Virus genome (UHGV): UHGV-0104572
Strand: one strand, 5' to 3'
DNA: 11,433 nt
From: a virus
Shown piece by piece: positions 50-11,383 of this stretch. Made by a program: the position numbers and the translations under genes. The notes beneath the pieces were generated by a model, which saw only the letters and a list, made by a program, of their open reading frames with translations, searched no databases and was not told the origin of the DNA. Within the stretch, counting starts at the first letter, position 1. Each line of letters starts with the position of its first letter.

Positions 50-2068
50 TTACATTACTGTAATAATAAAATCCAAATCAACATTGGCACCTGTATTATT
101 AAATGTCTTAACCGTAATTGAATAGTCTGAATCCCTTGAGAAACTTGAATATCTACCAGATCCTCCAAACAATGTAATATTTGGAACGAGTGTTGAAACG
201 TTAAATGTAAAATCTATCTTATATGTTCCTGATGACAGTCTAGATACATTTGATATGTTCTGAGCTAATGAATAAGCACCTGTAGATGAAATATTTGCTC
301 TTGCAGATACCAACCCTTGGCTATTTCTCTGAACTTTTTCCAATCCAGAATATGGTGATTTCATTGAATTTTGGTTGCCAAAGTCTGTAAAAACAAGATG
401 GCTAACACCAAAAGATGAAGGGACGACAAATTGCACTTCTTTAAATGCAGATTCAGCAGAAGCACCAGTGTTAAGAAAACCATTTCCCATCATATTCAAA
501 TAACATTGAACACCAGAACTGAGATCTGATTGATTTGACTGTACTATAACTCTAGATGCGCTAACGGAATCTAAATTATAGTTAAATATTGAATTATTTA
601 TGTTAATAATTTGATTTAAGTTTCTGTTTATGTAAAAACTCACATCAGAACCAGTATTTGATTCGAAATAGCAATTATCAATTGTTGCTGCGACACGACC
701 TGCACCACCAATCAACGCAAACTGTACGCACGAATTAAATGCAATTGGGGTCCCGTTGGAATATGATTTCCCTCCATTTGCTTCAAACGTACAAGTGTCA
801 ATTTTCCAAGCGTGTGCGTGTTGGTTTTCGATACAAAATTCAGCATTGTACTGAAAATCACAGCGTGAAAGTCTTATTGAGTTTGGTCCTGACACTTCAC
901 CAAGTCTTCCTTGTATTGCTGTTTTGTTATAAGTAAATCTACAATTGTTAAACTCAAGATATAATGAATCTTTCAGTTTACACCCAATCTCAAAGCCATC
1001 TATCAGAACATTCCTCATTGAAAGCCTGATGCATTTGTTTATATTTAATCCAAATCCTGACCAGTCAGATCTATTGGCACTTGAATCTACAGATCTGATA
1101 GTGAGGTTTTCTATGGGGAATGATGAAAATACTGAAAGAGAGCCATCAAGATAAATCCCGAAATTATTCTGCGAAGTTTCTGAAGCTAGTATATTTACTA
1201 TTGATAACTTTTCGTCAACACCTCTTATATAAGCTACTTTTCCACCTTCTCTCTGGTGTATTGGTATTGATACTGGTGATTTTAAATTTATAATATTGCC
1301 TGGTAAAACGACCCCAAGCCCAAGAACTCCGGCGGCTGAAATGGCCTTCCTTAGATTTGGTGATAAGTCCAAGTTATCATCAGGATTTCCATGCATACCA
1401 TACATTTCACCTGTGATTTCTTTGATGTCTCTTCTAACCCAACAACCGTTTGATGATGGATGTTCATCTCCAACTCCGTTTACATAGTCTGATACATATG
1501 CATCTCCAATATATGGAACTGATGGTGATATTATACACCCTCCGTCATGCTTCGACCTTATTATGCTGTCATTAAACTCAAAAATACCACCACCACCACT
1601 TCCATCTCGATACCATGACTTTAGTAAAACCTTATCTCCATTATTAGATTCCATTCCATAAAAATCAGATACAGCACCCAACTCACCAACTAAATTAAAA
1701 CCACCTTTACTAGATAATTCCTCTCTTAATTGATCAGGGTCATACTTCAGCACATTCGGAAAATAGAACTGCTTAGCACCATATGCATCATAAACAGCCA
1801 TAGAATGGCCTTGCACGGTAACGAATTTGGCAATCTGTCCGTTATATACCGGATATCCAGCAGCGTTAATGATGATTGGTTGCGAAACAGGAACGTGAGA
1901 TCCGTCTTCGTTCTCCACATAAACCTGAATCTGGTTTTCAGGATTTACCGGGTCAGTGTCAATTTTACCGATATAAATTTTGCCATTGGCTACAGCTTTA
2001 AAAGAACGAGCCATAGTGAAGAGTTGCGAAGGCATGCTCACTACAACATTAGCTGTAATGTCTGTCAT
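50..2068 (-). CDS. Tailspike protein: P22/HK620-type N-terminal head-binding domain, divergent C-terminal receptor-binding domain
   Basis: 672-aa ORF. The first ~115 aa ([11 protein letters not shown]...[11 protein letters not shown]...NVLKYDPDQ) match the conserved P22 gp9 / HK620 tailspike head-binding domain as I recall it. The rest is G/N/S-rich with NxS/T repeats, typical of a beta-helix, but does not match the P22 or HK620 receptor domains I remember. GGAG lies 8 nt upstream of the ATG at 2068. Confidence 0.85.
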
Positions 2069-2126
2069 TTAATTTGCTCCAGATACAAGGAATCGCCGCA
2101 GCATGGCTACGGTGAATTTTGGGCAT

Positions 2127-2150
2127 AAAAAAACCCAGCCGAAGCTGGGT
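2127..2150 (-). terminator. Rho-independent terminator between ant and tailspike
   Basis: Plus strand has an A-run (2127-2133) followed by cccagc-cgaa-gctggg (2134-2149). On the minus-strand RNA this is a GC-rich hairpin followed by a 7-U run, 19 nt after the ant stop. Confidence 0.6.
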
Positions 2151-2168
2151 CGTTGCGTTGGTTATCTG

Positions 2169-3092
2169 TCAGTAGTTATGTACTGAAGGAGGTAATTCTT
2201 TATTCTTAAGTCTCATCCATGCGGAAAGATTCGTTGGTCCGTCTGGCTCATTAATATCAACATCTCGTGTGTGGTTTATTAAAACGTCTCTCGCCATTCC
2301 GATAACATACGAGAACTTATGACCGTAGTCGTAGCATCTGCCGGAATAGTTCGATTGAATTTGTTTTAGCGCCGGATACAGTTCGCGGAATAATGCCTGC
2401 GAACGGTTGGCATAATCCCATAACCATACAAGGCTGTTTGCTTCTTTTGCAGAAAGCTCGTTGGTTTTCTTCTCTTGTTTGCCAATGAACTCACCTTCAA
2501 GTGGAACTCGAGCTGCAAGTGATAGTGCTTCGGTAAACTGCTCCTCACTGATTTCTTTGTACGAACATCCAAAATGGGATTTTAGTGACGACCACATGGT
2601 GATCATCGCCTTAGCCTGTTTTTCTTTTGGCAGAGACTGACCGCGACTCATGACGAGTTGTTTAATGGCTTCCTGCTGTTCAGTGGTGATTTTACCCGGC
2701 AACGCTTTTTTAGCTTTGCGTGGGTTAACTACATGGCCTTTAGTCCAGTACTCGTATAGCACATCGTCACACTCTTCTTGATACTGGATTACATTGTCGC
2801 GGATTTCAGGGCGGACTTTGTTAGGGCTGATGGTTTGCAACCAGCCATTCAGTTTACGTAAAGCAAGGCAAATCATGGTCTGCACACCGCCAACTGAAGG
2901 TATTGCGATTTCCACAATTCCTTTAGCAAATCTTTGTTTTAACTTTGTAAACTGTGAAGCCCAATCCATACCCATTCCCTCAACGATAGGTTTCATTGGG
3001 GTGTACGGCTCACCGTTGTGATTGACAACATAAAGCTCTGCGCCGTGGAATGGTACATTGATAGTAGATACTGCTGTTGCTATACTTTTCAT
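2169..3092 (-). CDS. ant: Antirepressor Ant (P22 immI-type)
   Basis: 307-aa ORF directly downstream of arc on the same strand, the same order as P22 arc-ant-gene 9. The N-terminus (SIA..A..T..VPF.G.E...) resembles what I recall of P22 Ant and AntA-type antirepressor domains. AGGAA lies 8 nt before the ATG. Confidence 0.7.
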
Positions 3093-3161
3093 GTCGTTAA
3101 TTCCTATGCGTGGTTTTACGATATCGAAGCCCTGACTGTTCCCGCAGTTGGGGCTTCAACT

Positions 3162-3323
3162 TTACGCGCCAATGCGTCCTTCCTTCTTAAAACTTTCCAT
3201 TACTCTCTGATAAATCTCAGAGTTAACAGACCGACCATTCTCTTCCGCCACCTTGCGTACCAAATCCAATACTTCTTTAGGCCACCGCAAATTGAACTGC
3301 GGCATTTTGCTCATTCCTTTCAT
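3162..3323 (-). CDS. arc: Arc repressor (ribbon-helix-helix)
   Basis: Translation from the internal Met gives MKGMSKMPQFNLRWPKEVLDLVRKVAEENGRSVNSEIYQRVMESFKKEGRIGA, 53 aa, essentially identical to P22 Arc with one K/R difference by my recall. The longer 74-aa ORF in the track is an upstream extension running through the operator region. Confidence 0.9.
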   Translation of the reverse strand: MKGMSKMPQFNLRWPKEVLDLVRKVAEENGRSVNSEIYQRVMESFKKEGRIGA

Positions 3324-3339
3324 ATTCACCTCACAATAT

Positions 3340-3356
3340 GGGTCCACGGTGGACCT
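3340..3356. promoter_or_regulatory. Omnt operator (Mnt binding site)
   Basis: Palindrome gGGTCCACGGTGGACCt, matching the 17-bp P22 mnt operator AGGTCCACGGTGGACCT except at the first base. It sits at the predicted Pant start site. Confidence 0.8.
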
Positions 3357-3390
3357 GTTGAGAATGTAGTAGAGTGCTTCTATCATGTCA
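3357..3390. promoter_or_regulatory. Divergent Pant / Pmnt promoter region
   Basis: Minus strand (Pant): -35 TTGACA (plus 3385-3390), 17-bp spacer, -10 TACATT (plus 3362-3367), start site inside Omnt. Plus strand (Pmnt candidate): -35 TTGAGA (3357-3362) and -10 TATCAT (3381-3386), 18-bp spacer. Pmnt placement is less certain. Confidence 0.65.
3366..3386. promoter_or_regulatory. Oarc operator (Arc binding site)
   Basis: Reverse complement reads ATGATAGAAGCACTCTACTAc, matching the P22 arc operator ATGATAGAAGCACTCTACTAT with one end mismatch. It lies between the -35 and -10 of Pant. Confidence 0.75.
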
Positions 3391-3413
3391 ATACACTAAC
3401 TTGGAGTGATGGC

Positions 3414-3668
3414 ATGGCTAGAGATGATCCGCACTTTAACTTCCGCATGCCTTTGGAAGTAAGAGAAAAATTAAAATACAGAGCAGAGTCAAATGGTAGA
3501 TCAATGAACTCAGAATTGTTGCAAATCGTCCAAGATGCTCTATCGAGACCATCTCCTGTAAAAGGTTATCGCAATGAAGCTGAACGATTAGCCGAGATGC
3601 AGGCTGAACAGTTCAAGTCTGTGGTATTTGAGACACTTAAAAACATGTATGGCAAGGATGCAAAATGA
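3414..3668 (+). CDS. mnt: Mnt repressor (maintenance of lysogeny; represses Pant)
   Basis: MARDDPHFNFRMPLEVREKLKYRAESNGRSMNSELLQIVQDALS..., 84 aa, closely matches P22 Mnt as recalled. GGAG lies 7 nt upstream of the ATG. The 216-aa ORF in the track is an unsupported N-terminal extension. Confidence 0.9.
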   Translation: MARDDPHFNFRMPLEVREKLKYRAESNGRSMNSELLQIVQDALSRPSPVKGYRNEAERLAEMQAEQFKSVVFETLKNMYGKDAK

Positions 3669-4246
3669 TCGATTACAACCCAGCAAAAAAAGAAATCATC
3701 GCAGCTAAAAAGTGCCTAGAGCAGATGAAATCATCTACAAACCATGATGATTTTGAAATGCACTGGCGAGAATGTCTTGGGCATATAGAAAAGTCTTTCA
3801 GTAAGTTGCTCTGTGCAACAAAGCCGGTTAGTGGAAAATTTAGCAGCCACTTCAACCAAAAGTTCATGCTTAGAAAAACAGACAAAACACTTGCTTACCT
3901 TCACCAAGCAAGAAATGCTGATCATCATTCCACTATGGAAATCTCAAAACTTGAACCTCCTTATACTACTCTTGGGGCATTTCCGGGAGCAAGAAGCCAT
4001 TATATTAAAGAGTTAATCATTGATTCAACAGGGAAAATAGCAAAATACGAAGGCGACCCTATGATAGTTGAGTTTCATCCAGCAACAACTATGCCTATAA
4101 CCGTAAGAAACCAAGGCAAAGATTATCCACCTCCAACAGAACATCTTGGCGAAAAGCTTGTTGATATACATCCATCTGTTCTTGCCTATCTCGGTATACA
4201 ATTTTATGAAAAATGGATAGATGAGTCGTGTGCAACGTTTAGATAG
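3665..4246 (+). CDS. Hypothetical protein (193 aa), translationally coupled to mnt
   Basis: The ATG overlaps the mnt stop (ATGA). It is a long clean ORF with no transmembrane segment and no motif I recognise. It occupies the mnt-to-sieA interval of a P22-like immI region. Confidence 0.6.
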   Translation: MIDYNPAKKEIIAAKKCLEQMKSSTNHDDFEMHWRECLGHIEKSFSKLLCATKPVSGKFSSHFNQKFMLRKTDKTLAYLHQARNADHHSTMEISKLEPPYTTLGAFPGARSHYIKELIIDSTGKIAKYEGDPMIVEFHPATTMPITVRNQGKDYPPPTEHLGEKLVDIHPSVLAYLGIQFYEKWIDESCATFR

Positions 4247-4463
4247 TTATTTTTGATAATTTCAAGTATTTCCTCTTGACTTTGATTTACCCAAACGTGA
4301 TCACACTCATGAAACCAGATTATGCTTCCTGTTTCGCCTTGTGCAATATAGGTGATCATGTTTTCATTAACAATTATTACTGAGTTATCATGTGCGCAAT
4401 TTAGTTTTATCAATTCGCATATCCTATCGTGACAAAGTAACTAGAAAAACTAAAGAGGTTGGT

Positions 4464-4958
4464 GTGTCTGATTCTATGAGTTACGCTGTGCTAGTTGCCG
4501 CAACTCTATTTATGGGGATAGGGTTGCAGATTGCGTGGTTCTTTTTTTCTAGTTTTATTAAACGCAAAAGAATTGAATCAAGGATATCTGAGATTTCTAT
4601 TGCTATAGGGAAAAATGCTGAAAATCCAGAGAATGAGGCCTGCGCACTGAATTACCTTAAAGAAAAGTTTTCCCCTGAAAAATTTGAAAATAGAATTACT
4701 GATGCTCTTGGATTGGTAATATCAGTAATTCATATGCCACTAAGTTTGCTGATAACAGTGTGGTACTTCGCCATGATCGCCGGAAGAATATTTGGTTTCA
4801 TGAATATAGAGCCTGTAGTTCTTTGGGTTCCAATGATACTGCAACTGTTGTTAAGCGTTGCTATCTTTATTTTTTCTGTTTTTATAAAAATTGTCTTTGG
4901 AAGATACCCCGGAGAAGCTAAGGGATTTAATAAAGAATTCATAAAAACTATAAAATAA
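4464..4958 (+). CDS. Inner-membrane protein, SieA-like superinfection exclusion candidate (by position)
   Basis: Four hydrophobic helices ([21 protein letters not shown]; [21 protein letters not shown]; two more near the C-terminus). Start is either GTG 4464 (GAGG 5 nt upstream) or ATG 4476. Synteny mnt > orf > membrane protein, convergent with the gp16-like gene, matches the P22 sieA position. I cannot recall the SieA sequence to confirm. Confidence 0.55.
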
Positions 4959-4980
4959 ATGCCGTCCTTGGCTTACAGTG

Positions 4981-6198
4981 CTACTGCCGGGTCGCTTCGT
5001 TAGCTAAGAGCGGGCGCACGGCAGTAGCAGCCTGATTTAGCGCTCTTTCATAAGCTGGCGTTCCAGCTTTAGTGTTTGCCAGACGTAAGAGCGCATTCCT
5101 TGCTGCTTTGGACTCATACAAACGCATCATTGCACCAAAACCAGCCTCAAGCCCCATTGATACTCCAAGAGTCGCAGTTGCGCCAATCGTCCTTATCCTG
5201 TTGGCTTGTGATTGCCCCGTCTGAGTTACTACATTTGCGGTGTCTGACCTTGCTGTTTGCTGTAGAACTTCATGAAGAGCATCGAGCTCTTTCATGTGCT
5301 TTCCAGAAAAAATAGTGTTGTAAATTTCACCGCCTGACTGAGATTTAAGCTTATTAACTTCAGTGATGAACTTGGCTGGAGAGTCACCGGCCTTTTCCGC
5401 TATTTTGCTGACGTAAGCTGCACGCATAGCATCTTTCCCTTTATCATCCAATGCGCTCCAGATTCGTTTCACGTCAGATGGTTTTCTGCTTAATACAACG
5501 GTATTTATAAGTTCAGGACTGGCTTCACTGCTTGCCTTGTTGAGCTTGTTAGCAATGTTTTTATTAAGCACCTTATTATAAACGTTTGCATAATCTGAAT
5601 TTGCTTTAAGGTATTTTGCTGCGTCTGATGCACCGAGGTTTTTAGCAACTGCGTTACGAAGGTCTTTTGACATTGCATTCTCTACCATATTGGTAGCTGC
5701 TTTTGCCTGGTTGGGGAAGACCATAGCATCTCCCTGAACATTAGATCTAAATGCTGTTCTGTGCTGACGCAAGAGATCAAACGTAACATCCAAATCAGTT
5801 GCAGGGTTTGCTAATTCTTCGCGTAGGTTACGCAAGGATGTAAGCAGGCTTTGATTGGCAGACGTCCCAAGCCGTTCCTGTCTTGCGATCGCTGTATTCA
5901 GAGCATTCATAGTGTTTGTGGTATCAACTGCGGCATTCCCCATTTTATTGGTGACGTCATTGATAACAGCGCCAGCGGCATCCTTCCGTCCCCTTAACGT
6001 GGTGGTCAGAGATTTCACCACATCATCCGGGTTGTACTCACCAAAACGGTCAAAATAATTACTTACCAACTTACTACGCGTTGCATATTGCTCCGCTCGC
6101 TTTGAGCCTGTCCCGAGCAAAGCCCCCTCGGCATTCGGGATGGCTGCATTTTGCGGTAAGCACGAACTCAGCCAGAACGACAAACAAAAGGCTATCAA
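4981..6198 (-). pseudogene. DNA ejection protein gp16-like, N-terminally truncated remnant
   Basis: 405-aa Ala/Asn/Lys-rich ORF on the same strand as the tailspike, immediately distal to the sieA-like gene, which is the position of gene 16 in P22. The first ~20 codons are antisense to the Q fragment, so the homologous part probably starts near 6130. Identification is by synteny and composition only. Confidence 0.4.
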
Positions 6199-6475
6199 CT
6201 ATCTGATGCAATTTGCACACAAGGTATCGGGGAAATACCGTGGTGTGGCAAAGCTCGAAGGAAATACTAAGGCAAAGGTACTGCAAGTGCTCGCAATATT
6301 CGCTTATGAGGATTATTGCCGTAGTGCCGCGACGCCGGGTGCAAGATGCAGAGATTGCCACGGTACAGGCCGTGCGGTTGATATAGCCAAAACGGAGCAG
6401 TGGGGGAGAGTTGTTGAGAAAGAGTGCGGAAGATGCAAAGGTGTCGGCTATTCAAGAATGCCAGCAATCAGCTAA
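6131..6475 (+). pseudogene. Q: Antiterminator Q (lambda-type), internal fragment
   Basis: [51 protein letters not shown]...CRDCHGTGRAVDIAKTEQWGRVVEKECGRCKGVGYSRMPA matches the central part of lambda Q as recalled. The N-terminal ~50 aa and the C-terminal part are missing, and the strand is inverted relative to what a collinear prophage would have. Confidence 0.8.
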
Positions 6476-6477
6476 CT

Positions 6478-6638
6478 TAACGACGCCCATGTTTCACTCC
6501 TACTTTGGCTAGTCTGTAAACACCAACAAGGCGCTCTGCGAACGCCCTGTTATTTGCTGCGGCTACCACTAATCCCTCAGGTGAATCAGGGTGTCGAATC
6601 TCTTCTTTTTCCTGGTATTTCTTACGACGTTTTGTCAT
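6478..6638 (-). CDS. Short ORF (53 aa) downstream of cII, probably the 5' remnant of a deleted gene
   Basis: AGGAG lies 5 nt before the ATG at 6638 (MTKRRKKYQEKEEIRHPDSPEGLVVAAANNRAFAERLVGVYRLAKVGVKHGRR). Its stop coincides with the end of Q homology, suggesting truncation at a junction. It is absent from the ORF track because it is under 60 aa. Confidence 0.3.
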
Positions 6639-6670
6639 AATTACTCCTGTAGATTGATCCAGTAATGACC

Positions 6671-6967
6671 TCAGAATTGCATATCAATTTGCTTAAAATC
6701 CTCGGTGGCGGCCGGGGATTTTTTCTTTGTGATTCCATCCAATGCATACTTAAAAGCCCTGCTAATCGGACTGATGTCTGATGCCATTCCGAAAGCACAC
6801 AAGACCGAAGCAATAAACCTCCAGTCCGTTCTGCTTATCTTCGATTCATGACAGCCAATCATCTTTGCCAGACCGCGCTGGGTAAGCGTTGACAGGTTGA
6901 TGAGTAAATCAGTTTCAGCGCGATCAATTTCTCGCTGTGTTGGCTTGCTATAACTTGCTTGTGTCAT
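6671..6967 (-). CDS. cII: CII-like transcriptional activator
   Basis: 98 aa. The helix-turn-helix segment LAKMIGCHESKISR parallels lambda CII AEAVGVDKSQISR, and the C-terminus KKKSPAATEDFKQIDMQF parallels KKRPAATERSEQIQMEF. It sits downstream of cro on the same strand. Confidence 0.8.
   Translation of the reverse strand: MTQASYSKPTQREIDRAETDLLINLSTLTQRGLAKMIGCHESKISRTDWRFIASVLCAFGMASDISPISRAFKYALDGITKKKSPAATEDFKQIDMQF
6945..6958 (+). promoter_or_regulatory. CII-binding direct repeat TTGC-N6-TTGC (PRE -35 region)
   Basis: TTGCtataacTTGC overlaps the 5' end of cII and points toward cro and cI on the plus strand, as PRE does in lambda. Confidence 0.55.
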
Positions 6968-7051
6968 TTGTTAATTTTCCAATAGTGAATAGTTAGTTGA
7001 AAGGTATGCGTGGAAACGCATATGGCCTTAGTTGGTCAGATATCTTGGGGC

Positions 7052-7097
7052 TCGCTTTGTCAGCGACGTAGGACGAATGTCCATTGTGAAAAGAGCG
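7052..7097 (-). promoter_or_regulatory. nutR: boxA-like CGCTCTTTT plus boxB hairpin with GACAA loop
   Basis: Minus strand has CGCTCTTTT (plus 7089-7097; consensus boxA is CGCTCTTTA) and UCGCU-GACAA-AGCGA (plus 7052-7066), between cro and cII. The loop is the P22-type GACAA rather than the lambda GAAAA. Confidence 0.6.
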
Positions 7098-7104
7098 GTG
7101 TTAC

Positions 7105-7305
7105 TTATGCAGTTGTTTTTTTGTTACTTGGGAAGGGCTTTATTTCTTCCGCATAAACGCTTCCATCAGCGTTTATAGTTAAAAAAATCTTTCGGCCTGC
7201 ATGAATGGCCTTGTTAATCGCGCTTTGATATACGCCGAGATCTTTAGCCGTCTTGGTTTGCCCAAAGCGTATTGCATAATCTTTCAGGGTTATGCGTTGT
7301 TCCAT
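7105..7305 (-). CDS. cro: Cro repressor
   Basis: [66 protein letters not shown], 66 aa, is lambda Cro with about two conservative substitutions. TAAGGAGG precedes the start. Confidence 0.95.
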
Positions 7306-7329
7306 ACAACCTCCTTAGTACAGGCAACC

Positions 7330-7399
7330 ATTATCACCGCTAGAGGTAAAATAGTCAACACGCACGGTGTTAGAAGTTTATCCCTTGCGGTGATAGATT
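7330..7399. promoter_or_regulatory. OR1-OR2-OR3 operators with divergent PR and PRM promoters
   Basis: OR1 7332-7348 is TACCTCTaGCGGTGATA on the minus strand, one G>A change from lambda. OR2 7356-7372 and OR3 7379-7395 match lambda exactly. PR on the minus strand: -10 GATAAT (plus 7330-7335), -35 TTGACT (plus 7353-7358). PRM on the plus strand: -10 TAGATT (7394-7399); the cI ATG is at the expected leaderless start. Confidence 0.9.
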
Positions 7400-7402
7400 T
7401 AA

Positions 7403-8119
<717 letters not shown>

Positions 8120-8150
8120 TTGTTTTATTTTTCACGTAATAGGATGATTT

Positions 8151-8492
8151 ATGACACAATTTCAACTTGCATTAATCGCTAGAGAAGTTGATGGAGAAGT
8201 CATCCATCTTCGCACCAAAGACGGATACATCAATGCCACCGCGATGTGCAAGTCTGCGGGGAAGCTACTTGCTGACTATACACGACTAAAAACAACACAA
8301 GATTTTTTTGATGAATTATCACGCGATATGGGGATTCCCATATCGGAGTTAATTCAATCATTTAAAGGCGGAAGAGCAGAGAATCAAGGGACTTGGGTTC
8401 ATCCAGACATCGCAATTAATTTAGCTCAGTGGCTATCTCCAAAATTTGCAGTGCAAGTATCGAGATGGGTGCGTGAGTGGATGTCAGGTTAA
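8151..8492 (+). CDS. KilA-N domain protein in the rexAB slot
   Basis: 113 aa; AGGA lies 6 nt before the ATG. The segment GYINATAMCKSAGK...GTWVHPDIAINLAQWLSPKFAVQVSRWV matches my recollection of the KilA-N signature (GT[WY]VHP..A...A.W.SP.F...V). It starts 31 nt after the cI stop, where lambda carries rexA. Confidence 0.65.
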   Translation: MTQFQLALIAREVDGEVIHLRTKDGYINATAMCKSAGKLLADYTRLKTTQDFFDELSRDMGIPISELIQSFKGGRAENQGTWVHPDIAINLAQWLSPKFAVQVSRWVREWMSG

Positions 8493-8531
8493 AGAGCGCC
8501 TGCCGAACTCCCTATCCACCTTAAGCGGTAT

Positions 8532-8910
8532 ATGACAAACCGAGGCAGAGTTCCTCATACGCACTTTTCTATGCTTAATGAACTGACGTTTAACTTGGTT
8601 GCGCCACTTGAACAGGCCGGATATACGCTGCCAGAAAAAATGGTCCCTGATATTTCAGAGGGTAGGGTTTTCTCGCAATGGCTCCGTGACAACCGGGGGG
8701 TTGAGCCGAAGACATTCCCAACATATAACCATGAGTACCCAGATGGCCGGACATTCCCGGTACGTCTATACCCAAACGAATATTGCAGATTTCAAACAAT
8801 ACTTCAACGAAGTGTGGCTGCCTCAGTACGCTCCTAAATATTTTGCTGAACGAGACCAAAGGGCATTGACGTTGATTGAGAAAATCATGCTACCTGACCT
8901 TGATTCCTAA
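8532..8910 (+). pseudogene. Unknown ORF with a frame break (frame 0 for 8532-~8780, frame +1 onward to 8910)
   Basis: Two overlapping ORFs (8532-8837 and 8599-8910) each look protein-like only in complementary halves: ...RTFPVRLYPNEY in one, ADFKQYFNEVWLPQYAPKYFAERDQRALTLIEKIMLPDLDS in the other. The break is near 8778-8786, not at a homopolymer. The first half is in the same frame as the KilA-N ORF, separated by a single TAA and 13 open codons. Confidence 0.5.
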
Positions 8911-8918
8911 ATGTTATT

Positions 8919-8944
8919 CCCGGCCACAGAGCCGGGTTTTCTTT
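8919..8944 (+). terminator. t_imm-like rho-independent terminator
   Basis: cccggc-cacaga-gccggg followed by TTTTCTTT, 9 nt after the stop at 8910. Sequence from here to OL matches the lambda rexB-to-OL interval as recalled. Confidence 0.7.
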
Positions 8945-9096
8945 GCCTCACGATCCCCCTCACCCAAGAACACATAACCAATTGTATCTATTTGAAAATA
9001 AATAGATACAACTCACTAAACATAGCAGTTCAGATCTCTCACCTACCAAACAATGCACCCCTGCAAAAAATAAATTCATATAAAAAACATACAGAT

Positions 9097-9167
9097 AACC
9101 ATCTGCGGTGATGAATTATCTCTAGCGGTGTTGACATAAATACCACTGGCGGTGATACTAAACACAT
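9097..9167 (+). promoter_or_regulatory. OL3-OL2-OL1 operators and PL promoter
   Basis: OL3 9097-9113, OL2 9117-9133 (tatctctAgcggtgttg, one G>A versus lambda), OL1 9141-9157 (exact). PL -35 TTGACA 9131-9136 and -10 GATACT 9154-9159, reading rightward. Confidence 0.9.
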
Positions 9168-9227
9168 CAGCAGGACGCACTACTCACCAGGGCGGTGAAT
9201 ATACAACGATTCAAATATGAATCTACG

Positions 9228-9242
9228 GCGCTGACAAAGCGC
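9228..9242 (+). promoter_or_regulatory. nutL boxB (P22-type)
   Basis: GCGCUGACAAAGCGC is a 5-bp stem with a GACAA pentaloop, identical to the P22 nutL boxB as I recall it. It lies ~65 nt downstream of the PL start. I did not find a boxA upstream. Confidence 0.7.
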
Positions 9243-9370
9243 AATAACCAAAGTGAACTTTGGGGTGAATGCAGAAGCTAACCTTCTCGGCGGAGGCGCT
9301 TTGCAATGATTACGCTACCGGAGTTAGTCGCCCGGCTGTATTCACCGCCAAAGTTCACCAGGAGGTCTAT

Positions 9371-9538
9371 ATGACACGCAGAACTCAGTTCAAAGGCAAT
9401 TCACGTTCTCGTCGTCGTGAGCGTTTAAAGGCAAAGGCATTAGCTAACGGCGTACTGGCCCGCGAAGAAGCAATAAGTTCAGAAGTATTACACCGCCCTG
9501 CGCCATCATCAATGTTGCGGCGATCGGCATCACCTTAA
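9371..9538 (+). CDS. N-like antiterminator, C-terminally truncated (55 aa)
   Basis: AGGAGG lies 6 nt before the ATG at 9371. The arginine-rich motif GNSRSRRRERLKAKA resembles the P22 gp24 motif GNAKTRRHERRRKLAIE. Full N proteins are ~100 aa; the last ~15-30 codons here are recT-derived DNA read out of frame. Confidence 0.6.
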   Translation: MTRRTQFKGNSRSRRRERLKAKALANGVLAREEAISSEVLHRPAPSSMLRRSASP

Positions 9539-10236
9539 ACCCAGCCAGCAAACTTGCTTATCTAGTTCCGCGCGACGGCATGGTTTGCCTTGATATCAGT
9601 TATATGGGATTGCTCCATATTGCAATGGAGTCTGGTGTTATCTCATGGGGTCAGGCAAAACTTGTTCATGCTAACGATACCTATGAGTCAAACGGGCTTG
9701 ATAAAGCACCAACCCATAAATACAACGCCTTCGGTGATCGTGGTGATATCGTTGGCGTTTACTGCACAGTTAAGACGCCAGCAGGTGATTATCTAACGGA
9801 AGAGATGAGTCTGGCTGAAATTGAGGCTGTAAGGAAAACAAGCAAGGCGGCATTCAGCGATAAAGGACCATGGGTAAATCACTGGAATGAGATGGCGCGA
9901 AAGACGGTCGTAAAGCGTGCAAGCAAGTATTGGCCTAAGGCATCACGTCTTGATAGTGCTATTCACGTACTAAACGAAGAAGAAGGTGTATGGACTGAAC
10001 CAGTTATGCCGTACAAATCAGAGGAAGATATCCGCGAAGATGAACGGAAACGCCAGCAGGAAATAACGGATAAAGCACAACTTCTTTGTGATGAAATGGC
10101 TCAGGCAGAAAACATGGATGATTTGAAGCGATATTTTGCAGAAGCATATCGCCTGACATCTGGAATGAAATTGCAGCATAACGTACAAGCCATTTACATA
10201 GAATGCAAAGCGAAACTGGAGGTTGCCAGTGAGTAA
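9448..10236 (+). pseudogene. recT: RecT-family recombinase, 5'-truncated remnant
   Basis: The frame is open from 9448. CAIINVAAIGITLNPASKLAYLVPRDG aligns with E. coli RecT SAIVQCSQLGLEPGSALGHAYLLPFG, and KGPWVNHWNEMARKTVVKRASKYWPKA with NGPWVTHWEEMAKKTAIRRLFKYLPVS. The N-terminal part is absent and there is no start codon or RBS for the homologous region. Confidence 0.65.
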
Positions 10237-10711
10237 ACTATATGAAATAGCCAATGAATACGCAAAATTGATGGATTCAGATTTAGAGCCAGAGATGATT
10301 GCTGACACAATAGAAGGCATGGAAGGAGAATTTACCGATAAAATAGAGCAACTTCTTTCCGTCATTAAAAATGAATCTGGTTATGCTGAACGCCTCAAGG
10401 AAGAGGCAAAGTCACTGAATGAGCGAGCCGCAGTAATTCAAAATAAGATTGACAGCATCATATCATATATAGCGTCATCGCTTGAAATGGTAGGCAAGAA
10501 AAAGATTAGAGCAGGTATTCACCAGGTAACAATCCGCAAACCGTCAGAAATTGTAGAAATAATCGACTCAAGCGCCCTTCCTCCTGAATACGTTGAGTTT
10601 GAAACAACAATTAAAGCCGACAAACTGGCAATCAAACACCAACTAAAAGCAGGAATAAATATCCCCGGCGCTCAACTCAAAGTTGGGAAACCTTCACTTC
10701 TTATCAAATAA
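10229..10711 (+). CDS. Siphovirus Gp157-like coiled-coil protein
   Basis: GGAGG lies 7 nt before GTG 10229, overlapping the recT stop. The ~160-aa protein has a charged coiled-coil N-terminal half and a C-terminal ...PPEYVEF...KAGINIPGAQL segment, resembling the Gp157 family often found next to recT/erf. Family assignment is from memory. Confidence 0.5.
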   Translation: MSKLYEIANEYAKLMDSDLEPEMIADTIEGMEGEFTDKIEQLLSVIKNESGYAERLKEEAKSLNERAAVIQNKIDSIISYIASSLEMVGKKKIRAGIHQVTIRKPSEIVEIIDSSALPPEYVEFETTIKADKLAIKHQLKAGINIPGAQLKVGKPSLLIK

Positions 10712-10774: not shown

Positions 10775-11383
10775 CGGCGACAAGGCCATATAACAACAAA
10801 CCCTGTCGCTGCCACTCGCGCAGCAAAATCAGAGGTAAGGAGATCAAGACTTACGGCTGACGAATACCTGAAAATTTATCAAGCAGCAGAATCATCACCA
10901 TGTTGGCTCAGACTTGCAATGGAACTGGCTGTTGTTACCGGGCAGCGAGTTGGTGATTTATGCGAAATGAAGTGGTCTGATATCGTAGATGGATATCTTT
11001 ATGTCGAGCAAAGCAAAACAGGCGTAAAAATTGCCATCCCAACAACATTGCATGTTGATGCTCTCGGGATATCAATGAAGGAAACACTTGATAAATGCAA
11101 AGAGATTCTTGGCGGAGAAACCATAATTGCATCTACTCGTCGTGAACCGCTTTCATCCGGCACAGTATCAAGGTATTTTATGCGCGCACGAAAAGCATCA
11201 GGTCTTTCCTTCGAAGGGGATCCGCCTACCTTTCACGAGTTGCGCAGTTTGTCTGCAAGACTCTATGAGAAGCAGATAAGCGATAAGTTTGCTCAACATC
11301 TTCTCGGGCATAAGTCGGACACCATGGCATCACAGTATCGTGATGACAGAGGCAGGGAGTGGGACAAAATTGAAATCAAATAA
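10775..11383 (+). pseudogene. int: Integrase (lambda Int-type) remnant, C-terminal catalytic domain only
   Basis: From ~10784 the frame reads GHITTNPVAATRAAKSEVRRSRLTADEYLKIYQAAESSPCWLRLAMELAVVTGQRVGDL...HLLGHKSDTMASQYRDDRGREWDKIEIK, about 98% identical to lambda Int from residue ~168 to the end, including the catalytic Tyr in SQYRDD. An in-frame TAG at 10772 and unrelated upstream sequence replace the arm-binding and core-binding domains. Confidence 0.9.

Follow-up and report, generated by a model that had tools for sequence, protein, structure and literature searches.

The question raised by this locus is how a remnant of a P22 gp16-type gene came to abut, head to head, an inverted fragment of a lambda Q-like antiterminator gene. 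The locus lies within an 11,433-nucleotide stretch of the UHGV virus genome UHGV-0104572, which was analysed at its full length and is referred to here as the window. The original prediction described the region as two 5′-truncated genes brought together by at least one deletion plus an inversion, with the removal of head, lysis and replication genes. The breakpoint mapping against an intact prophage that it proposed was carried out with L001, an intact P22-like prophage of E. coli 18KM2445, as the ruler, supplemented with the native O and P genes of mEp506 and E. coli CP53 (99–100% identical).

From the list of open reading frames and database matches, the window was found to be a lambdoid prophage read in reverse map orientation, in which a lambda-type immunity region (cI/cro/cII) is combined with a P22-like tail and ejection module. 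Reading from its left end, it contains a P22-type tailspike gene (50–2068, minus strand), ant (2169–3092, minus), arc and mnt (3162–3668, both strands), a sieA-like gene (4392–4958, plus), the gp16-type remnant, here gp16′ (4981–6134, minus), and the piece of Q, here Q′ (6133–6467, plus). The order following gp16′ is the usual sieA-mnt-arc-ant-tailspike. To the right of Q′ are a small ORF resembling gp53 of HK97 (6477–6638, minus), which belongs between cII and O, and cII itself (6671–6967, minus), both in normal prophage orientation and the latter anchoring the right flank. These are followed by cro (7105–7305, minus), a lambda-type cI (7406–8119, plus), a KilA-N gene (8151–8492, plus), a 5′-truncated recT (9580–10236, plus) and the last 154 codons of a lambda-type int (10919–11383, plus). 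The Pfam families Antiterm, CII (Phage_CII, E 2e-33), RecT and Phage_integrase were all recognized, while gp16′, sieA and gp53 had no match in the local Pfam library. The recT remnant covers only profile positions 60–186 of 198, and its intact relatives, such as that on L027, are 303 aa in length. The plus strand at 6695–6722, antisense to the 3′ end of cII, also carries a terminator-like stem-loop, located where lambda has the terminator of oop RNA.

The chromosomal setting of the window was provided by L034, a 244-kb ENA metagenome scaffold reached through an exact look-up of the 379-aa gp16′ product, which contains the whole window at 100% identity. On this scaffold the lambda att core GCTTTTTTATACTAA occurs on both sides of the prophage, 11.9 kb apart, with ybhJ-ybhC flanking one side and ybhB-bioA-bioB the other. 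As these chromosomal flanks are 99.7–99.8% identical to many E. coli genomes, the host is E. coli, and the element enclosing the window is a defective lambdoid prophage of 11.9 kb at the lambda attachment site. It has both marks of a cryptic lambdoid prophage, namely att cores at a known phage site and essential genes that are lost or truncated: int has been reduced to the 154-aa C-terminal ORF and O to 25 nt, and P, nin, the lysis genes and the head genes are absent. In the collection searched, the 154-aa int ORF beside ybhC appears in 773 blocks, and at other loci quite different prophage debris lies upstream of it, including IS-rich, ipaH-bearing (Shigella-like) DNA on L021, L022 and L025; the ORF may be an ancient relic common to many loci and not a product of this prophage's own decay. 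On L034, the stretch from 14121 to 14538, immediately to the left of the window, separates the tailspike stop codon from the left att core and contains the C-terminal end of a second tyrosine integrase (...HAQYLDKRREMMQWWADWLDEKVE*), which suggests another illegitimate join at the prophage end.

Alignment to L001 established the head-to-head arrangement of the gp16-like remnant and the inverted Q fragment, with small corrections to the coordinates. Window positions 4953–6134 align on the minus strand to gp16 of L001 (612 aa, annotated "DNA transfer protein"), with the homology ending at the second base of codon 229. What remains of this P22 gp16-type DNA-ejection gene is therefore a 3′ portion consisting of two bases of codon 229, codons 230–612 and the stop codon. 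It shares 96–100% DNA identity with intact 612-aa gp16 genes and is colinear with the full-length gene of contig L008 at 99.93%. The program-made ORF of 405 aa (4981–6198) takes its TTG start and first 21 codons (6135–6198, minus strand) from antisense Q and not from gp16, just as the original prediction had supposed when it attributed the start of this ORF to the reverse strand of Q. Gene callers begin gp16′ at the TTG at 6120, giving a 379-aa product for which PF26808 (Phage_P22_gp16) is recorded; this form occurs in 32 blocks of the collection, while an exact-product look-up placed none of the 405-, 362- or 320-aa forms of the remnant on record. Base-level alignment to native gp16 and native Q puts the gp16|Q junction at 6133/6134, where a 2-bp "AT" is common to both sides, and the two BLAST segments of the window against L008 overlap exactly at 6133–6134. 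Compared with the P22 gp16 ejection protein, gp16′ retains the C-terminal 383 codons, which run colinear with those of the intact 612-aa genes of E. coli P22-like prophages at identities of up to 100%, but the 229 N-terminal codons, the upstream genes 20, 7 and 14 and all of the head genes are missing. A functional P22 gp16 would be a full-length protein of ~609–612 aa encoded after genes 7 and 20, and gp16′ shares its homology but not this length.

The Q fragment occupies 6133–6467 on the plus strand and aligns to Q of L001 with 99.7% identity (E 1e-172), extending from the third base of codon 46 to the first base of codon 158. Codons 47–157 of 207 are complete, the zinc-finger region included. 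The strand and the fragmentary nature of Q were thus correctly called in the original prediction, which had placed the homology at about 6131 (near residue 50) to 6465; its description of both genes as 5′-truncated is right for gp16, but Q is truncated at both ends, lacking codons 1–46 and 158–207. At the DNA level, the fragment is 96–98% identical to the Q genes of Sf101, HK97 and mEp235. It lies within a 111-aa ORF (6140–6475, plus) composed of Q residues 49–157 followed by Ile-Ser-stop contributed by the adjoining O sequence; this ORF matches PF03589 (Antiterm) with an E-value of 6e-28, and the exact product is also called in L004 and L005. In L001 a distance of 16 kb separates Q from gp16 and the two genes share a strand; the Q piece is therefore both inverted and displaced, as had been proposed. 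Only one site within the fragment varies among the copies described below, window position 6309, which is A (Glu) in the window, L004, L005, L007 and L015 and C (Ala, as in lambda Q) in L006, L008 and L026; a test for selection on Q′ has no power because there is this single SNP.

When measured against the lambda Q antiterminator (PF03589), the likeness is restricted to residues 47–157, in which the DNA is 96–99% identical to that of HK97, Sf101, mEp235 and many prophage Q genes and the CxxC...CxxC zinc-finger region is retained. The fragment differs in lacking residues 1–46 and 158–207, in being inverted, and in being followed by neither pR′ nor a lysis cassette and preceded by no promoter-like site. 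While the family profile is matched, a full-length protein of ~207 aa with an intact C-terminal part is not encoded, and the position is not that of a functional Q, which precedes the late promoter and the lysis genes on the strand of the late operon; the fragment is inverted between gp16′ and O′ in a window containing no lysis genes. Q′ is a fragment and not a functional member of the Q family.

At its right end, Q′ abuts a sequence that had been missed in the original prediction. This is the first 25 nt (8 codons) of the replication initiator gene O, at 6466–6490 on the minus strand (here O′), and it is followed by gp53, cII and cro; window positions 6460–6998 align to the start of O, gp53 and cII of L001 on the opposite strand to Q. 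The Q|O′ junction is at 6466/6467, where a 2-bp "AA" is common to Q codon 157/158 and O nt 24–25 within an imperfect 8/10 match (ATGCCnGnAA). The microhomology that the original prediction had asked to be looked for is therefore present at both junctions, 2 bp in each case (AT at 6133–6134 and AA at 6466–6467). An identical Q|O′ junction is found in L004–L008, L015, L026 and L034, and this junction together with all of the sequence to its right is ≥99.9% identical in eight other contigs from different sources.

Before a history can be read from these junctions, it must be asked whether the gp16|Q junction is genuine or an assembly chimera, in which the gp16 arm and the Q/immunity arm of different molecules were joined by an assembler. 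The junction itself is carried by the window and by L034, and L034, the best independent witness, is a metagenome scaffold which may be the window's own source and could derive from the same assembly. Exact scans of GTDB representative genomes detected neither the left (gp16|Q) nor the right (Q|O′) junction, the left junction had no match in IMG/VR, and megablast against 5,426 complete E. coli RefSeq genomes located neither junction in any of them. Among those complete genomes, the 100% matches to gp16 are intact P22-like prophages at argW and the best match to the flank is an intact lambdoid prophage at att-lambda. A literature search on this prophage element returned general background only. 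Set against the missing matches to the junction is the fact that the arms have only 2 bp in common, far less than any k-mer able to mislead a de Bruijn assembler, so that a k-mer assembler would have no reason to misjoin them. In addition, five less decayed copies, some of them Mb-sized contigs of isolate assemblies, have the two arms on one contig with order and orientation unchanged; on L034 the pair sits between the correct chromosomal flanks and the two att cores; and the gene neighborhood is common to four contigs, three more contigs having the same neighborhood as L034 according to neighborhood records. We therefore consider a chimera very improbable.

The less decayed copies also allow the two junctions of the Q piece to be placed in order. 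Six further contigs carrying Q|O′ were recovered through exact matches to the 111-aa Q′ ORF and to the right junction: L004 (ENA metagenome), L005 (Logan SRR19561260), L006 (OCAN01002443.1), L007 and L008 (both IMG/VR) and L026 (ENA). A less decayed form of the prophage is represented by L008, L015, L007, L006 and L026. In the orientation of the window, its left part comprises a full gp16, a 525-aa fusion of Rz and gp20 (the head genes being gone) and the endolysin gene R from codon 58 (minus strand). This is followed by a plus-strand block from which nin has been lost and which contains O from nt 24, P/DnaB codons 1–340 and a stretch of Q that begins 10 nt ahead of the gene's start and ends at codon 157. 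On the minus strand beyond it come O nt 25–1, gp53, cII and cro. O has been split cleanly, the remainder of the gene (nt 24 onward) being found inverted at position 8648 of L008rc, the reverse complement of L008; its two pieces overlap by 2 nt, which are also the microhomology to R and Q. Approximately 1.06 kb is missing between Q codon 158 and R codon 57, corresponding to Q codons 158–207, the holin and endolysin codons 1–57. The 525-aa ORF was created by the head-gene deletion, which fused the N-terminus of the Rz spanin in frame to the C-terminal part of the ejection protein gp20 (L008rc ~7946–7955; L006 60–1637).

Compared with L008, the window consists of two blocks, 50–6134 at 99.93% and 6133–9707 at 99.92% identity, between which L008 has an extra 4,512 bp; the same extra DNA is present in L006, L007, L015 and L026. 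The window form is the less decayed form minus one deletion of 4,512 bp, whose ends lie in gp16 codon 229 and Q codon 46 and overlap by 2 bp (AT). The direction of this change is unambiguous, as the extra DNA restores the continuity of gp16, Q and O to the base. It follows that 6466/6467 is the old inversion junction and 6133/6134 a later, plain deletion, and that the head-to-head appearance arose when this deletion set the 5′-truncated gp16 against the remains of an already flipped segment. The account of at least one deletion plus an inversion is documented by these copies and was correct but incomplete, in that the inversion junction is Q codon 157|O nt 25 and not gp16|Q. Nothing speaks for the gp16-like ORF or the Q-like segment being of native length, the homologs of gp16 being 612 aa and the Q piece a true fragment, and the structure recurs in other assemblies. 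Within the 5.3 kb that the copies have in common there are just six variable sites, by which the window groups with L004, L005, L007 and L015, and it has no private change in common with L005. The short repeats of O (the ori iteron region, L008rc 9011–9028) vary in copy number, with 77 bp more in L015 and L007 and 66 bp more in L011 and L018 than in L008.

These intermediates bear directly on two other ways in which an inverted piece of Q might have arisen. Short microhomology at both junctions (AT and AA) together with a small inverted insert is what replication template switching classically leaves behind when it produces, in one step, a deletion and an inverted templated insertion. However, some copies have the right junction without the left one and carry the full inverted O-P-Q(1–157) block as well as the reciprocal junction between the truncated R and O; the two junctions consequently arose at different times, and a one-step origin, being contradicted by the intermediates, was rejected and is given scarcely any weight. 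Lambdoid and P1/Mu-type prophages carry invertase switches, and the segment, being inverted, might alternatively be a programmed invertible segment of the Hin/Gin/Cin/Pin type caught in one orientation. The gene lists contain no invertase or resolvase within the element, there are no inverted-repeat crossover sites at the ends of the block, both ends lie within coding sequences that were destroyed by the inversion, one junction is accompanied by a loss of 1.06 kb, and every copy with the Q piece (L004–L008, L015, L026 and L034) has it in a single orientation. The crossover repeats, the adjacent serine invertase and the occurrence of both orientations that define such segments were accordingly all missing among the assembled copies, and a programmed switch is the least credible explanation considered here. 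Inversion mediated by inverted repeats or an invertase was likewise discarded, as only short chance repeats were found; one repeat pair near both block ends (L008 3182–3194 and 5520–5532) spans a junction that was absent before the event.

The inversion of the O-to-Q block, accompanied by a loss at one of its junctions, was most probably illegitimate. It would have proceeded either through the illegitimate rejoining of broken DNA ends or through template switching. The inverted block originally had O nt 24 at one end and Q codon 157 at the other, with P/DnaB and nin between them. O was broken cleanly between nt 23 and 25, with 2 bp of microhomology at each of the two inversion junctions and ~1.06 kb lost at one of them; the other inversion junction (R codon 58|O) was in DNA since lost from the window. 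The later 4,512-bp deletion probably likewise took place by illegitimate, short-homology recombination. In all, at least five events are required: the inversion with its 1.06-kb loss, the nin deletion, the head-gene deletion, the shortening of int and recT and, last, the deletion of 4.5 kb. Short-homology illegitimate recombination is familiar in E. coli from the formation of lambda bio and gal transducing phages and from alternative end joining. The events described here resemble it in their 2–8 bp of microhomology, in the lack of a site-specific recombinase signature and in consisting of deletions and an inversion beside the lambda att site, and differ in being deduced from natural variants rather than selected in the laboratory. 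Taking the evidence together, it is highly probable that the junction is a scar without function, carried by a defective lambdoid prophage and left by an earlier inversion and a later 4,512-bp deletion.

Further derivatives of the prophage have other deletions or joins. L005 is the less decayed form minus 836 bp, from P codon 115 to Q codon 47 (microhomology TTCG), and in L004 a 3′-truncated IS5 is joined to Q codon 38. L011 (equal to L024) and L018 have lost the 1,232 bp between P codon 340 and cro codon 43 (microhomology TTA) and have IS5 in place of the tail genes. In these two isolate assemblies IS5 replaces the tailspike-to-sieA part (L011 2564–3700 and L018 3934–5061); its boundary in L011 (window ~4441) is 5 bp from window position 4446, the limit of homology to the argW remnants L032 and L033.

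The endpoints of several of these events fall close together. The right ends of the deletions in the window, L005 and L004 lie within 30 bp of each other in Q (codons 38–47), those of the window and L005 being 0–5 bp apart, and the deletion of L011 starts 0–4 bp from the older junction between P codon 340 and the sequence upstream of Q. The breakpoint at gp16 codon 229 occurs, at the same 2–8 bases, with three unrelated partners: antisense Q (window and L034), truncated ninG (L033, L035, L037 and L072, at the 8-bp GGATGCCG) and truncated dsdX (L032 and L036, at GGAT). The ninG and dsdX cases come from a P22-like remnant at argW, the arm of which shares only 99.0% identity with that of the window. 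In L033, L035 and L037, a retron-like cluster (RVT_1 reverse transcriptase, PRTase-CE and resolvase) was also noted at positions 100–4000, beside the P22-like remnant with the same gp16 truncation point. The recurrent endpoints are at window 6134, at ~7987–8001 of L032/L033, and at 6085, 10446 and 10570–10602 of L008rc. For ten endpoints in 14 kb, the rough expectation that any two fall within 4 bp of each other is ~0.03. This clustering would not be expected from purely random illegitimate recombination and hints at a hot spot or at selection beyond the events reconstructed above.

Either the boundaries may mark breakage hot spots (gp16 codon 229, Q codons 38–47 and P codon 340), or selection may have kept Q(49–157) and/or the gp16′-sieA-tailspike arm while neighboring toxic genes were removed. 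Besides the shared endpoints, such a reading draws on the occurrence of the 379-aa form in 32 blocks when the 320-, 362- and 405-aa forms of the same gp16 allele are not on record. The gp16 cases were, however, ascertained through the exact 379-aa product, which admits only junctions within ~72 nt, an ascertainment bias; L032 and L033 are possibly not independent, and some of the events may be sequential rather than independent. Folding of the DNA in 80-nt windows at the three recurrent sites was no better than that of shuffled sequences (z −0.5, −1.4, +1.9 and +0.5), and a hairpin or cruciform cause was rejected on this ground. The lack of a predicted promoter for Q′ and its single SNP, which gives no power to a selection test, also count against such a reading. 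On balance, we regard non-neutral pieces or boundaries as unlikely, and the same judgment applies to the clustering as a real hot-spot or selection effect. To our knowledge, the re-use of endpoints has no citable description as a property of short-homology illegitimate recombination.

With regard to function, promoter prediction found no sigma-70-like promoter upstream of Q′ on the plus strand, the only promoter-like site nearby being pR on the other strand, and expression of Q′ was for this reason not supported. Neither fragment would be expected to work. Q′ is missing its first 46 and last 50 residues, has neither a promoter-like site nor downstream lysis genes, and has nothing to antiterminate; gp16′ is missing 229 N-terminal residues and all of its partner virion genes. 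There is no evidence of function for the scar.

In comparison with cryptic E. coli prophages of the DLP12, Rac, Qin and e14 type, the prophage enclosing the window is alike in having its morphogenesis, lysis and replication genes deleted, in retaining genes of the immunity region, in its truncated integrase and in its incapacity for excision or replication. It differs from them in its location at the lambda att site, in the combination of lambda-type immunity with a P22-like ejection and tailspike module, in the illegitimate inversion of the O-to-Q block, and in the preservation of several successive stages of decay in public assemblies. The junction is a product of ordinary prophage decay and not a new system.

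The scar alone matters little, being one more case of an integrated phage whittled down by deletions and rearrangements. The value of the element is modest and is that of a worked example of staged decay: as five or more stages survive in public data, each junction can be assigned to an event and given a relative order. Should hot spots or selection prove to lie behind the shared boundaries, prophage decay would follow preferred break points and not random ones, and if the clustering of endpoints is non-random, these prophages would offer naturally occurring material for the study of illegitimate-recombination hot spots in E. coli.
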